NCBI GenBank assembly: GCA_036835125.1
Contig: DAITMO010000001.1
Location: forward strand, 609,399 to 673,398
Direction of reading: 5' to 3'
Length of the DNA: 64,000 nucleotides
DNA from: Patescibacteria group bacterium
Lineage (GTDB): Bacteria > Patescibacteriota > Microgenomatia > UBA8517
Under the pieces are notes generated by a model. It had not been told where the DNA came from and made no database searches. It worked only from the letters and a program-made list of their open reading frames with translations. Both the position numbers and the translations under genes were made by a program. The stretch's first letter is position 1, and each line of letters starts with the position of its first letter. This document shows, piece after piece, positions 2,518 through 13,903 of the stretch.

Positions 2518-3432
2518 TTATTTAGAAACTCCATAAGGGGTGTATACTGCCAAACCGCTTAGTGGAAATTCCGGCCATCCTTTAAATACAGAAACTCTCC
2601 TATTACTTTGACTTTCAATGGATCCATCAATGCTAGAATACCCTGTTGAGGTTATTTCCAACCCTTGTGAAGGAAGTGTTTGGCCACTTGATGCAACACT
2701 CACTCCTACATAGTGTGCTTGCGAGGAATTATATATCATTCTTAACTTTGCCATCACAAGTCCATTGTTATTAAAATCATTACCTCCTAGTGCAGAAAGA
2801 GTAATGGCTTTTTGAAAAGCATAGGTGACACCTTCTATCTGACAGGGTGTAGTTGATGCCGACTCAAAAAGATTGTTTGAAGTTCTTGTTGTATTTGGAT
2901 CATAAACAGCTCTTGCAACTTTAATTGAGGATAAAACACCAGGAGTAGATTCGTAGTACAAACTCAATTCAACTGCTGGAGTATTTGCATCTCCTGCGTT
3001 TGTTCCTTCACTGCCCCAACAAATGTTTAACACGTTTCCTGTGTAGCAAGATGGATATTCAGGCTCACAAGTAAGCTCACCTTCATTTGTATGCGACATA
3101 AACCAAATTGTTGTTGTATCACCAGCAAGTAAAGGAATTGGATAATTAAAAGTTTGTGTAGCGTCACTTTTTACGTCTACTGAATAAGAAGCGTCTCCTA
3201 TTGTAACATTTCCTGTGGTTCCTGCCCCTGTAATAAGGGCTGTTTCGATTCCTGCCTCTGCTGCCGAAAAAGCTCTTACAGCATCTGCTTGTTTTGTAGA
3301 AGAAGATATGTCTGTAATAGATCTTGAAAGAACAAATAACACTATCGTTAAAACTACAGATAATGAAAGTAGTACTATTACAACAGCCTGACCGGATTCT
3401 GTTTTAAGCCTACTTGCAATATTATTTGGCAT
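2518..3432 (-). CDS. PilX-like minor pilin / pilus-associated protein, last gene of the pilus operon
   Basis: N-terminus has a hydrophobic helix followed by AFSAAEAGIETAL, resembling the PilX N-terminal domain. It is positioned at the distal end of the pilin cluster. Confidence 0.5.
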   Translation of the reverse strand: MPNNIASRLKTESGQAVVIVLLSLSVVLTIVLFVLSRSITDISSSTKQADAVRAFSAAEAGIETALITGAGTTGNVTIGDASYSVDVKSDATQTFNYPIPLLAGDTTTIWFMSHTNEGELTCEPEYPSCYTGNVLNICWGSEGTNAGDANTPAVELSLYYESTPGVLSSIKVARAVYDPNTTRTSNNLFESASTTPCQIEGVTYAFQKAITLSALGGNDFNNNGLVMAKLRMIYNSSQAHYVGVSVASSGQTLPSQGLEITSTGYSSIDGSIESQSNRRVSVFKGWPEFPLSGLAVYTPYGVSK

Positions 3433-3479
3433 TAGTTCAGTTTAACAAGGCGTAAGTATTATTGCAATTTAAAGAAATA

Positions 3480-4040
3480 CTAATTTCTTAATTGTATTTT
3501 TGTTTCAGCACTGACACTTGCCGTTAATATACCAGAAGAATCTCTGTCTGCTGCAGAAATTTCTACAGTCACAAAAGGTGATTTGGTTGTATCTTCAGGT
3601 TCAATACAACTAATGCTACAACTTGTAATTTTAACTCCCTCAGAACTTAATCTGGCTGATCCTGAAGCTATATACGAATTATCCTCACCCGTATTGATAC
3701 AAGAAAAGGTTGAAAAGTTTCCATGTTGGTCAAGATATGTAATTGACTTGAATTCATTCGGATCAGTACTCTCACTAGTTGCACAAACAGTGACACTATT
3801 TGCATTCCTTAAGTTTCTTTCTATTACGGAAAGAGAATAATTAATATTTTCTCTTACCTTCACCAAAGATTCACTTTTTTTTGTACCTCTGATTGTTAAT
3901 ATCAAAGAACTGGTAACAACCAAGCCCAAGGCAGCAAAAATTGTTACCACAATTAATATTTCAGCCAAACTTACTCCTAATATATATCTGTTTTGTTTCA
4001 TGTCTTTTTTGTTTATTATTCTACTTTTTTCCTTTTTCAT
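3480..4040 (-). CDS. pseudopilin (class III signal peptide protein)
   Basis: G|VSLAEILIVV has Glu at +5. The likely start is the internal Met (MKKEKS...), which forms an ATGA start/stop overlap with the upstream gene (plus-strand tcat at 4037-4040). Confidence 0.6.
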   Translation of the reverse strand: MKKEKSRIINKKDMKQNRYILGVSLAEILIVVTIFAALGLVVTSSLILTIRGTKKSESLVKVRENINYSLSVIERNLRNANSVTVCATSESTDPNEFKSITYLDQHGNFSTFSCINTGEDNSYIASGSARLSSEGVKITSCSISCIEPEDTTKSPFVTVEISAADRDSSGILTASVSAETKIQLRN

Positions 4041-11026: not shown

Positions 11027-11094
11027 CTTTTTGTTTTGTAGTTGTTTTGTTTCAATTAAATTTTTAGTTTTTTAAAAGAAATTGTTATCTCTTA

Positions 11095-12180
11095 TTATTG
11101 ATGTGTGGAAAAACTTCTAACCAGTCTCATTAACTCTTCCGGTCTCAAAGACCAACTTTGAGCTTCTTCTAGAGTTACTTCTCCTTTTTTCACTAATTCA
11201 ACGAGAGACTTTTCCAAAGTTACCATTCCTGCTTCTTGTGAGGTTTCAAGTATGCTTTCTATTTGATGGGTCTTTCCCTCTCTAATGGCCGTTTTTACTG
11301 CTGTTGTACCAAGCATAAGCTCATATGCTGCGGTTCTACTTCCGCGTGTTGTTTGTACAAGTCTTTGGGAAAATACAGCTTCAATGACGTTAGACAGTTG
11401 AAGTCTAATTTGTTTTTGCTGTTCTTCAGGAAAAACGTCTACAATTCTATCTATTGATTGAGCAGCAGAATTTGTGTGAAGTGTGGCAAATACAAGATGT
11501 CCCGTCTCTGCAACAGTTAGGGCTGCCGCTATTGTTTCGTAATCTCTCATCTCACCAACCAAAACAACATCAGGGTCTTCTCTTAAAACTGATCTTAAAG
11601 CAATCTCCCACGAATGGGTATCGCTTCTCATTTCTCTTTGTGAGACTATCGATTTTATTGGGTTAAAAACGAACTCAATTGGATCTTCTATTGTCACAAT
11701 GTGACAAGCACGGTTTTTGTTAATTTCTTGAAGCATTGCAGCTAAAGTTGTTGATTTTCCATGACCTGTTGGCCCTGTTACTAAAACAAGTCCTTGTCTT
11801 AAATTTGTAAATGTATGTAGTATTGGAGGCATATTAAGAGATTCCAAAGGAGGTATGATAAGGGGTATTAACCTAAATGCCGCTGCAAGAGAATTCTTTT
11901 GAGTGTAAGCATTTACTCTAAACCTTCCTTTTTCAGAAAAAGATAATGAAAAATCAATTTCTTTGTTGACATTTAGTCTTTCCAGTTGTTCACTTGTGAG
12001 TATCTGGCGCAATAGATCATTTATTACATCTGGAGTCAAAATACTAGTGCCAACTACTTGTGTTAATTTCCCATTTATCCTAACCATAGGTGGAATACCA
12101 GTAACTAAATGAAGATCACTAGCACTGCTATCTACAACAACTTGTAATAATTGTTTTATATCCATATTATTCTTCCGCAA
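11095..12180 (-). CDS. pilT: type IV pilus retraction ATPase PilT
   Basis: 361 aa. ASDLHL near the N-terminus, Walker A GPTGHGKSTT, IEDPIEF, and GHLVFATLHTNSAAQSIDRI. Confidence 0.8.
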   Translation of the reverse strand: MRKNNMDIKQLLQVVVDSSASDLHLVTGIPPMVRINGKLTQVVGTSILTPDVINDLLRQILTSEQLERLNVNKEIDFSLSFSEKGRFRVNAYTQKNSLAAAFRLIPLIIPPLESLNMPPILHTFTNLRQGLVLVTGPTGHGKSTTLAAMLQEINKNRACHIVTIEDPIEFVFNPIKSIVSQREMRSDTHSWEIALRSVLREDPDVVLVGEMRDYETIAAALTVAETGHLVFATLHTNSAAQSIDRIVDVFPEEQQKQIRLQLSNVIEAVFSQRLVQTTRGSRTAAYELMLGTTAVKTAIREGKTHQIESILETSQEAGMVTLEKSLVELVKKGEVTLEEAQSWSLRPEELMRLVRSFSTHQ

Positions 12181-13903
12181 CTCTTAGTACTTCTTCCACT
12201 GTAGTAATACCTTCAACAACTTTCAAGTATCCATCTTGTTTTAATGTTATCATTCCTTCTTCTCTAGCTTGCTTTTCAATATCTGATGATGAAGCTCTTT
12301 CTAAAATAAGTTTTCCGATCTTTTCTGTTACTGGCATTGCCTCAAAAATTCCAACTCTACCAAAATATCCTGAGTTGCCACAATCAGGACACCCTTTTCC
12401 TTTATAGAATTTAACTTCTCCTTGAGGTCTCCATAAATTACCAAGCCCATCTTGAATCTCCTGAACAATTTTAGCTTCTGGAGTGTATGCTTCTTTACAA
12501 CCATCATGAATTTTTCTAACAACACGCTGGGCAACAATACATGTCATTGAGGATGCTAAAAGATATGGCTCTGCTCCCATATCAAGAAGACGGGGAAGGG
12601 CTCCTGATGCATCATTTGTGTGAAGTGTTGAAAAGACTAAGTGTCCAGTTAAGGATGCTTGAACTGCCAAATCAGCAGTTTCCTGGTCACGAATTTCTCC
12701 AACAAGGATAATATTAGGGTCTTGTCTCAAGAAAGATCTTAAGCCATCTGCAAATGTAAGCCCAACTGCTGGATTAATCTGAACTTGATTCACGCCTGGA
12801 ATTTTATACTCTACAGGGTCTTCCAAAGTAACAATATTAACTTTTGGTGTATTGAGCCTTGAAAGAACAGAATAAAGGGTTGTTGTTTTTCCAGATCCTG
12901 TAGGACCACAAATAAGAATAATTCCATGAGGTCTAAGAATTGCATCTTCTAAATTTTTAAGACTTCTGCCACGAAGTCCTAATTCCTGTAAATCGGGAAC
13001 TCCACCAGATTTTTTAAGAAGTCTCATAACAATTTTTTCTCCCCAGGTTGTTGGAAGAGAACTGATACGAAGGTCAACTTCTGCATCACTTCCTTTAAAA
13101 TTAAACCTTCCATCCTGAGGAATCCTTTTTTCATCTATTTTCATTCCTGATAGAATCTTTATTCTGGATACTAAGGAATCATGAAGCTCTTTTGGAGTTG
13201 TGAGTTTTTCTTGGAGTATTCCATCAATACGATAACGTACACGAGTTGATCTTTCTTCAGGTTCTATATGGATATCAGAGGCTCTAGACTTTATAGCAAA
13301 ATCTAATATCTGACTTACAATTTGAGCAATCTTCTCCTCTCTTATAAAGTCGCCCTTACCACTTTGGAGTGTTACAACCTTCTCTCTTTCAGAAGAAACA
13401 TCTTTCATTGCATCAGTCACTTCCTGGGATAGGGAAGTTGTATATCTGGTATGTAAAAAGTCCTCAATTTTACTAGGAAGTGCAGCATATGGCTTAACAT
13501 GAAGGCCTGTTTTTTGTTCGATAAACTCTATTGCAGACAAGTCTAAAGGATCCGTCATCGCCAAATTCATACTTTTGTCTTTGGGATCAATGTTAACTGG
13601 AAAGACTTTGAATCGTTCAGCTACTTCTGAAGGTAATGCAGCTAAAGCAGCAGGAGCAATTGGAGCTGTATCTAAGTTTATATATGGAATGTTGTAAAGT
13701 TCTGATTTTGCTTGGATTAACTTTTCTTCAGGAACAATTCCTGCTTTTTTTATTACTTCTTCTTGTGGGGTGCCACTTTGAATTTCGGTAAGTTTAATTT
13801 GATCAGCTCGAGCTTGATCAATTGCGCCAATTTTTACCAATATGTCAGCGAGCGTTTGAAGACCTTTATCTACATTATTCTGGACAGGTTGAGTATTGGG
13901 CAT
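12167..13903 (-). CDS. pilB: type IV pilus assembly ATPase PilB/GspE
   Basis: 578 aa with an N-terminal GSPII_E-like domain. Walker A ICGPTGSGKTTT, GHLVFSTLHTNDASGALPRLLDMG, and a C-terminal tetracysteine CPDCGNSGYFGRVGIFE. Confidence 0.85.
   Translation of the reverse strand: MPNTQPVQNNVDKGLQTLADILVKIGAIDQARADQIKLTEIQSGTPQEEVIKKAGIVPEEKLIQAKSELYNIPYINLDTAPIAPAALAALPSEVAERFKVFPVNIDPKDKSMNLAMTDPLDLSAIEFIEQKTGLHVKPYAALPSKIEDFLHTRYTTSLSQEVTDAMKDVSSEREKVVTLQSGKGDFIREEKIAQIVSQILDFAIKSRASDIHIEPEERSTRVRYRIDGILQEKLTTPKELHDSLVSRIKILSGMKIDEKRIPQDGRFNFKGSDAEVDLRISSLPTTWGEKIVMRLLKKSGGVPDLQELGLRGRSLKNLEDAILRPHGIILICGPTGSGKTTTLYSVLSRLNTPKVNIVTLEDPVEYKIPGVNQVQINPAVGLTFADGLRSFLRQDPNIILVGEIRDQETADLAVQASLTGHLVFSTLHTNDASGALPRLLDMGAEPYLLASSMTCIVAQRVVRKIHDGCKEAYTPEAKIVQEIQDGLGNLWRPQGEVKFYKGKGCPDCGNSGYFGRVGIFEAMPVTEKIGKLILERASSSDIEKQAREEGMITLKQDGYLKVVEGITTVEEVLRVAEE

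Follow-up and report, generated by a model that had tools for sequence, protein, structure and literature searches.

In monoderm type IVa pili (T4aP), such as those of Streptococcus sanguinis and Clostridium, PilB, PilT, PilC, PilD, PilMNO and the pilins are encoded together, without a secretin. About 4–5 pilin genes are present, and minor pilins are modular, with grafted domains. The gene block described here has more pilin genes than these loci; its sequence identity to them outside the N-terminal helix is negligible. It occupies positions 2518–13903, minus strand, of the window, i.e. the whole 64-kb stretch of DNA analysed (GCA_036835125.1, contig DAITMO010000001.1, positions 609,399–673,398), in a genome from the candidate phyla radiation (CPR). 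It is read as a retractile, monoderm-type T4aP operon of Candidatus Woesebacteria, with a probability of about 0.85.

Secretin-less type IV pili (T4P) with PilB, PilT, PilC, PilD and PilMNO are a CPR-wide trait (PMC6744442); CPR bacteria as a group lack PilQ and an outer membrane (PMC6744442; PMC7143001). In Saccharibacteria, motility and host association depend on T4P (PMC9894109; PMC11665869), which drive twitching and are essential (PMC9894109; PMC11623550; PMC11665869). T4P locus 1 of Nanosynbacter lyticus TM7x (PMC11623550) is, as here, a single CPR locus of pilB, pilT, pilC, pilD and pilins, free of a secretin. It has 5 pilins and includes pilMNO, whereas the present genome has 11 pilin-like genes and pilMNO 35 kb off. 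TM7x belongs to Saccharimonadia and the present genome to Microgenomatia; the likeness drawn here is one of described features and fold matches. A single-locus T4P is also described from a Microgenomates genome, that of bacterium Ch65 (PMC7143001), which shares its superphylum-level group with the present organism, with PilA and minor pilins, PilD, PilB, PilT, PilC and PilM in one locus, pilQ being absent. PilM is in the locus in Ch65, but displaced here; the Ch65 description is silent on pilin number and order.

Operons of other Woesebacteria and Microgenomates (e.g. L001, L022, L038) have the same order as the present one from gyrB' holB' through K, the terminal gene, at 45–88% protein identity. 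They continue with pilM-pilN-pilO and KH' rpsP', whereas 35,288 bp lie between K and pilM in the present genome. The locus is thus an ordinary CPR type IV pilus operon, and displaced pilMNO is the only feature in which it differs from the family template. Because intact pilM-N-O genes occur on this contig too, the machine is complete and the operon has been split and not reduced. T4P are regarded as the chief organ with which CPR bacteria locate and cling to host cells, and are essential in the few cultivated species. For Woesebacteria, which have no cultivated member, the locus is a further well-resolved case; it leaves the current understanding of T4P unchanged.

Operon composition and system identity

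Fifteen consecutive minus-strand open reading frames (ORFs) are packed into the block, with junctions of -4 to +68 nt, in accordance with the single pilus block of the preliminary description. The order is pilB, pilT, pilC, pilA, pilD and nine further pilin-like genes, closed by K, whose pilin-like product is 304 aa long. Pilin-like genes other than K number 10, so that with K the total of eleven first given stands; the nine after pilD had been counted as eight. The names Y, X, g1–g4, H, I, J and K are labels assigned in the present analysis. Features are listed below in window coordinates, an arrow marking the presumed cleavage site of prepilin peptidase or, in X, the corresponding position.

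13904–13990, minus strand: divergent intergenic region upstream of pilB; sigma-70-like TTGATA-17-CATAAT at 13977–13949, from a consensus scan only.
12167–13903, minus strand: pilB, extension ATPase, 578 aa; Pfam T2SSE (PF00437) E 1e-130, MshEN (PF05157) E 2e-15.
11095–12165, minus strand: pilT, retraction ATPase, 356 aa from ATG 12165; TIGR01420, Pfam T2SSE E 1e-43.
9821–11026, minus strand: pilC, inner-membrane platform protein, 401 aa; Pfam T2SSF (PF00482) in two stretches, E 6e-62.
9205–9756, minus strand: pilA, candidate major pilin, 183 aa from ATG 9756; N_methyl E 3e-8, TIGR02532 match.
8427–9176, minus strand: pilD, prepilin peptidase/N-methyltransferase, 249 aa; A24_N_bact (PF06750) E 1e-31, Peptidase_A24 (PF01478) E 1e-14.
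7745–8437, minus strand: Y, pilin-like, 219–230 aa, KG↓ISLIE; N_methyl and T2SSG sub-threshold, GspG model E 1e-7.
7130–7717, minus strand: X, pilin-like, 195 aa, N-terminus MQKRKI↓FTKSE; GspG model E 2.5e-6, BLASTP to g1 E 4e-15.
6557–7108, minus strand: g1, GspG/PilE-like pilin, 183 aa, QG↓FTLVE; N_methyl E 4e-6, GspG model E 3e-11, T2SSG and ComP_DUS weak.
6007–6519, minus strand: g2, pilin, 170 aa as longest ORF; N_methyl E 3e-7, T2SSG E 3e-5 (above threshold), GspG model E 1e-16.
5517–6005, minus strand: g3, pilin, 162 aa from ATG 6005, SA↓FTLIE; N_methyl E 4e-5, GspG model E 1e-11.
5029–5520, minus strand: g4, pilin, 163 aa from ATGA start 5520 (alternative 5471), LA↓FTLIE; N_methyl E 2e-7, T2SSG E 1e-6.
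4523–5032, minus strand: H, minor pilin, 169 aa, KG↓YTLIE; N_methyl E 1e-7, start in ATGA overlap with g4.
4037–4519, minus strand: I, minor pilin, 160 aa, SG↓QSLFE; N_methyl sub-threshold, E 0.056.
3480–4040, minus strand: J, minor pilin, 186 aa from ATGA start 4040, LG↓VSLAE; AlphaFold2 model, N_methyl sub-threshold.
2518–3432, minus strand: K, terminal pilin-like protein, 304 aa, SG↓QAVVIV, without E5; predicted model.

Pfam and other profile searches recovered T2SSE, T2SSF, both Peptidase_A24 domains, N_methyl and the PilT family. PilT is matched over its full length by NCBIfam TIGR01420 (PilT/PilU), with 450.7 bits against a required 319.1, which bears out the retraction ATPase noted at first. 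Its ORF opens at TTG 12180; the distance from the pilB stop to ATG 12165 is 1 nt. The best NCBIfam match of PilB is TIGR02538 (type IV-A PilB), at 572 bits under the equivalog cut-off of 675; those of PilC are the GspF and PilC models, each under its equivalog cut-off. PilD shows CxxC...CxxC and GDVK motifs in translation, and ATPase and peptidase motifs of the operon proteins are intact. Machinery genes are about 70–88% identical to those of close relatives, pilB 67–88% to its orthologues in related loci. In the public annotation of the source contig, pilD is called as 150 aa with Peptidase_A24 alone, and a 93-aa antisense ORF is laid over its 5' part; this call looks truncated, because the intact 249-aa ORF also has A24_N_bact.

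ATGA is present at 4037–4040, 5029–5032 and 5517–5520, as described earlier. The third site may not be a true start/stop overlap, given an in-frame ATG of g4 at 5471, preceded by a Shine-Dalgarno-like AAAAGG and as good a start as ATGA 5520. Promoter and terminator scans returned match counts equal to shuffle expectation and gave no usable sign of internal transcription units; the sigma-70-like match upstream of pilB is therefore a candidate and not evidence. The pilA candidate is the fourth gene, so that the major pilin is not promoter-proximal as was first supposed.

A strict class III motif search in six frames of the window gave seven true matches, all at 4990–9738 on the minus strand; since they are confined to this region, the pilin cluster is not due to chance. 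Pfam N_methyl is above threshold in six pilin genes (9205, 6557, 6007, 5517, 5029 and 4523) and sub-threshold in three (7745, 4037 and 3480). The motif [G/A]↓xxxxE, read by eye, stands ahead of a hydrophobic helix in nine pilin-like genes. Exceptions are X, without Gly(-1) but with F1 and E5, and K, with Gly(-1) but without E5.

The T4aP complement consists of PilB with T2SSE and MshEN, PilT, PilC with two T2SSF stretches, an A24-type PilD with its N-terminal domain, pilins with class III signals and, outside the window, a PilM-PilN-PilO scaffold. No PilQ secretin is found among the window ORFs scanned, in agreement with the first reading, and no comEC, comEA or comF in the 64-kb window (Pfam was run on unassigned ORFs; obvious housekeeping ORFs were identified by N-terminal sequence only). 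Lack of PilQ is no bar to membership in monoderm T4aP, because these are also without PilQ; as an already published CPR-wide trait, it is not special to this locus.

The type II secretion system (T2SS, Gsp) has, as here, a homologous ATPase, platform and peptidase, GspG-like pseudopilins and a four-gene minor set ending the array. It also has GspD, GspC, GspL and GspM and no PilT; here PilT is present and none of those four is found in the window. A T2SS-like pseudopilus, in which GspG-like paralogues form a protein-expelling piston and no extracellular pilus, is highly improbable. GspE, GspF and GspG models do score near the PilB and PilC models, and several pilins match T2SSG, but a bona fide PilT-family ATPase, which T2SS lack, is present, the scaffold is of PilM/N/O and not GspL/M/C type (PilM_2 E 1e-44 in orthologous position), no secretin was found among the window ORFs scanned and there is no outer membrane to cross, and pili have been observed on CPR cells. 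The locus is that of a type IV pilus and not a gsp operon, as the preliminary description held. Pam pili of CPR (bioRxiv 10.64898/2026.03.03.709456) are donor-strand-exchange Ig-fold pili unrelated to the present locus.

Scores of the competence (ComG) models fall far short of those reached by the PilB, PilC and GspG models: ComGA 260 bits (cut-off 300), ComGB 131 (240) and ComGC 19–30 (75). Together with the presence of PilT, these values do not support a ComG system. They also argue against a mainly competence (DNA-uptake) pilus, a short retractile fibre with which PilT pulls DNA to ComEC, host attachment being secondary or absent. This proposal draws on the enrichment of CPR genomes in ComEC together with T4P, from which DNA uptake has been proposed (PMC6744442; PMC7143001), on natural competence of Saccharibacteria (PMC10187176) and on a weak sub-threshold ComP_DUS match of g1 (E 2e-5, 25.5 bits vs cut-off 27.3). 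It is unlikely in view of the Com genes missing from the window, of a lectin-like domain in K that is not a known DNA-binding module, and of tested TM7x T4P-2 mutants unimpaired in competence (PMC11623550). Roles in competence and attachment are not mutually exclusive.

Under the T4aP reading, PilD would cleave, and probably N-methylate, prepilins at [G/A]↓F/Y/I/Q/V-x-x-x-E. PilB, acting on the PilC platform and held by the distally encoded PilM-PilN-PilO, would drive insertion of pilins into the growing filament. The filament body would be mainly PilA, possibly with the GspG-like paralogues g1–g4. H, I, J and K would most likely be a priming or tip complex, with K presenting its jelly-roll, lectin-like domain at the tip. 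PilT would depolymerise the filament and so retract it; a secretin would be dispensable to a cell without an outer membrane. Cultivated Saccharibacteria suggest, by analogy, that the pilus may serve twitching motility and host-cell attachment, possibly DNA uptake. Identity of the major pilin, the tip role of H–K and the biological function are presumptive.

Several points weigh against this reading. The pilus of this organism is predicted from its genes. PilB and PilC are under equivalog cut-offs, and PilB/GspE and PilC/GspF models score almost equally; because these scores do not separate the two systems, the call of T4P over T2SS rests on PilT, pilMNO and lineage context. Genes pilMNO are now transcriptionally separated from the others, so that expression of the two parts need not be balanced. 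Neither comEC nor comEA is in the window, and DNA uptake is accordingly no more than a possible role. Profile searches of H–K against PDB sequences matched only the shared N-terminal helix, so that these proteins are at most putative counterparts of the core minor pilins.

Family template and displaced pilMNO

PilC relatives in a species-level genome collection are almost all metagenome-assembled genomes of Candidatus Woesebacteria, Microgenomates and Patescibacteria, with best identity of 79–80%. In 80 related loci (L001–L080), ORFs were called and labelled by BLASTP. The conserved order is gyrB' holB', then pilB pilT pilC pilA pilD (Y) X g1..g4 H I J K pilM pilN pilO, then KH' rpsP'. Of the 44 loci in which K can be recognised, 39 have pilM directly after it. 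What relatives encode downstream of K is a clear PilM (PF11104, PilM_2, E 1e-44) and two small bitopic proteins in which PilN and T2SSM_b/PilO signals are weak. Recognisable pilin-like genes number 5–13 per related locus (median 9), and 10–11 in the close relatives L001, L005, L007, L010 and L022; eleven, initially regarded as unusually high, is normal for the lineage. High pilin count and missing secretin are lineage-typical, because the same gene order recurs in dozens of related genomes. The fixed 18-gene order can be used as an annotation template for Microgenomates.

tblastn searches with PilM, PilN and PilO of nine relatives gave no pilM, pilN or pilO, either in the window or in the adjoining 8.8 kb on the left. 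PilM of relative L001 as query retrieved a 339-aa protein, P0045, 72% identical. Its gene is followed by pilN (180 aa), pilO (228 aa) and then KH' and rpsP', the ancestral right-hand neighbours. These pilM-N-O genes lie at about 67,174–69,420 of ENA ERZ724080 NODE_43_length_285001 (locus L085 10001–12247), on the same contig and strand as the operon; the proteins are also encoded on a 778-kb contig present in NCBI, ENA and Logan. Window position 1 is position 102,192 of this contig by exact-match look-up, K ends at contig position 104,709, and the distance from K to pilM is the 35,288 bp given above. The products have PilM_2 and FtsA domains and are 72/48/43% identical to the PilM/N/O counterparts of L001. 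The first impression of a compact operon without PilMNO is correct for the window and incorrect for the genome: with pilMNO 35.3 kb further along this contig, it was a window-edge effect. Annotators should be aware that an apparently 'PilMNO-less' operon may be merely split.

Gene content of the interval was read outside contig positions 79,421–93,415. It includes an M16 peptidase gene convergent on K, AbiEi/AbiEii, three genes without known function and an AAA_14/DUF4143 ATPase gene; a second M16 peptidase and a nitroreductase are also encoded. Directly upstream of pilM (59-nt gap) is a glycosyltransferase/epimerase/ABC-2/Bac_transf cluster of 29% GC, vs 35.5% in the window. A speculative and improbable reading is that the position of this cluster ahead of pilMNO, after its horizontal acquisition, couples pilus assembly to surface-glycan synthesis. 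Both new junctions, on the K side and on the pilM side, recur in several independent assemblies; the split of pilMNO is for this reason no misassembly.

A break in the ancestral 18-gene order, here and in a related subclade, and a gap that holds a low-GC island and a toxin-antitoxin pair would also fit a decaying operon, disabled in its coordinated expression by the 35-kb insertion that severed pilMNO and heading for loss. Such decay is very unlikely: all 15 ORFs and pilM, pilN and pilO are intact and of orthologue length, the catalytic motifs and the identity of the machinery genes to relatives are retained as described above, identical sequence was recovered from several samples, and in those cultivated CPR that have been examined to date the T4P genes are essential (PMC11665869).

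Subclade L008–L014 and L021, including the complete chromosome OY970314.1, is likewise without pilMNO after J/K. A 517-aa Cys-rich protein without a Pfam domain is encoded at L081 5924–7477, to the left of the window. Its homologues (L009, L010, L011, L013, L014) are convergent to the 3' end of the operon in the Woesebacteria subclade without pilMNO after J/K, and the C-terminal 260–330 aa are 39–48% identical. An alternative scaffold was sought in three genes to the left, with products of 701, 198 and 517 aa, but Pfam gives this no support. A weak PilM-like match at L081 3188–3298 is inside the 701-aa protein, which lacks a Pfam domain, and was dismissed. The AbiEi/AbiEii toxin-antitoxin (abortive infection) pair adjoins the 3' end of the operon (window 135–761, plus strand; L081 8022–9537); the window begins inside the AbiEii gene, so that only part of it is included.

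Pilin array and terminal protein

PilA has a leader of 7 residues (MRKAVHG↓FTLIELL), E5, six C-terminal Cys and 38% Gly/Ala/Ser/Thr. In relatives its gene is always directly after pilC, in 2–3 tandem copies in some. Among close relatives no other operon gene diverges as much (33–70% identity); identity is 35% to L001 and 66–70% to L005 and L021. Position, divergence and copy variation would fit a surface-exposed major subunit. Two pilA sequence types occur among L001–L080, '..IEQINRSRDTGSRSDAEQ..' and '..IEQANRA.D.G.KAD.SQ..'. Their spread across lineages is patchy and does not track similarity of the machinery genes, a pattern that points to exchange of alleles or to strong diversifying selection acting on the presumed major pilin.

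Y, with an orthologue in 26 related loci, has a Ser/Pro-rich linker and a Cys-rich C-terminal module, 10 Cys in all. X has no Pfam match. Its N-terminus, M-(1-5 aa)-F-[TS]-K-x-E, without Gly/Ala(-1) and with Lys at +3, is kept in about 50 orthologues (L001–L070). Cleavage by PilD is doubtful because Gly is lacking at -1, and X may by its sequence be no PilD substrate. The products g1–g4 are mutually related GspG/PilE-like paralogues with 34–45% pairwise identity; g1 is 31–40% identical to g2, g3, g4 and Y, and g4 is 44–45% identical to g2.

In g2 and g4, in-frame tandem 'leader + GFTL' units stand upstream of the real cleavage motif (6424–6519 and 5449–5487, minus strand). The g2 N-terminus reads MRKTAH-GFTLM-NRNFKRKSK-GFTLM-KQVSVREL-GFTLIELL, three units of about 42 nt, with tandem units at 6466–6501 and 6424–6459 and alternative starts at 6489 and 6447. 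That of g4 reads ..KK-GFTLM-NRNSDREL-AFTLIELL, two copies, one a pseudo-leader GFTLM upstream. Duplicated modules are found in 15 of 339 pilin-like ORFs of related loci, in differing paralogues, and were seen in L010, L013, L001, L011, L021, L066, L025 and L018. Two module classes, 'GFTLI-RTIRKNLVSV-' and 'GFTLM-NxxSExK-', are conserved between genomes at the nucleotide level. Possible explanations of the modules are scars of slippage or of gene conversion between paralogous 5' ends, a genuine long leader, or an element of the 5'-UTR. That the g1–g4 array is a recombination-driven system of pilin diversification is a tentative and rather unlikely proposal, put forward because pilA alleles seem to be exchanged between lineages, because copy number of pilA and g genes varies among relatives, and because the two classes of duplicated module are common to different paralogues and genomes. 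If true, Microgenomates would switch or mix filament subunits, with altered host range or escape from pilus-binding phages.

H, I, J and K are four consecutive genes closing the pilin array, the last without E5, an arrangement that recalls the GspH-I-J-K and FimU-PilV-PilW-PilX priming sets. The H orthologue profile matches solved pilins via the N-terminal helix only, with a faint match to FimU (E 0.29). The I motif G-Q-S-L-x-E is near-invariant in 30 orthologues. J homologues carry the public names prepilin, PulG, FimT or PilW in some sources. The AlphaFold2 model of J, with a mean confidence (pLDDT) of 90.7, has an N-terminal helix (residues 25–78) and a 7-stranded sheet, a classic pilin lollipop. 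A fold search with this model gave no significant solved relative; the best match of pilin fold is S. sanguinis PilB (7ba2), non-significant. For an assignment of H, I, J and K to GspH–K, profile searches and fold searches of K and J gave no specific match, whereas position and number fit; the four are putative counterparts of that set.

K is likewise a pilin lollipop in its predicted model, with a pilin helix and a jelly-roll, lectin-like domain; folds of both J and K are pilin-like as modelled. Fold matches of K are lectins, carbohydrate-binding modules and capsids. Its family of 544 homologues has no Pfam model. K was at first called PilX-like; it has no PilX_N (PF14341) match, no match to a PilX or GspK model and, in the fold search, no structural match to either. 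It resembles instead the jelly-roll PilX1 of Saccharibacteria: TM7x PilX1 is the largest and last pilin, lacks a canonical PilD signal and has a beta-jelly-roll with fold matches to glycoside hydrolases, lectins and capsids (PMC11623550). From its model, K is a candidate tip adhesin, with presumed glycan binding. The terminal jelly-roll pilin family is a reasonable candidate host-binding adhesin.

Other genes of the window

The remainder of the window holds typical CPR housekeeping genes at about 35–35.5% GC; the genome is a streamlined one, as suggested in the preliminary description. The gene at 20461–24132 on the plus strand, at a distance of 6.5 kb from the operon, encodes a protein of 1223 aa that starts with a signal-like sequence and contains Ig-like domains. 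The protein matches Bact_surface_Ig-like (E 2e-17) and, weakly, Big_13 and Big_3_3, and is by sequence a candidate surface adhesin. At 52861–53531 on the minus strand, adjacent genes of 142 aa and 80 aa with a one-base overlap look, by their sequences, like a VapC (PIN) / AbrB-type antitoxin module.

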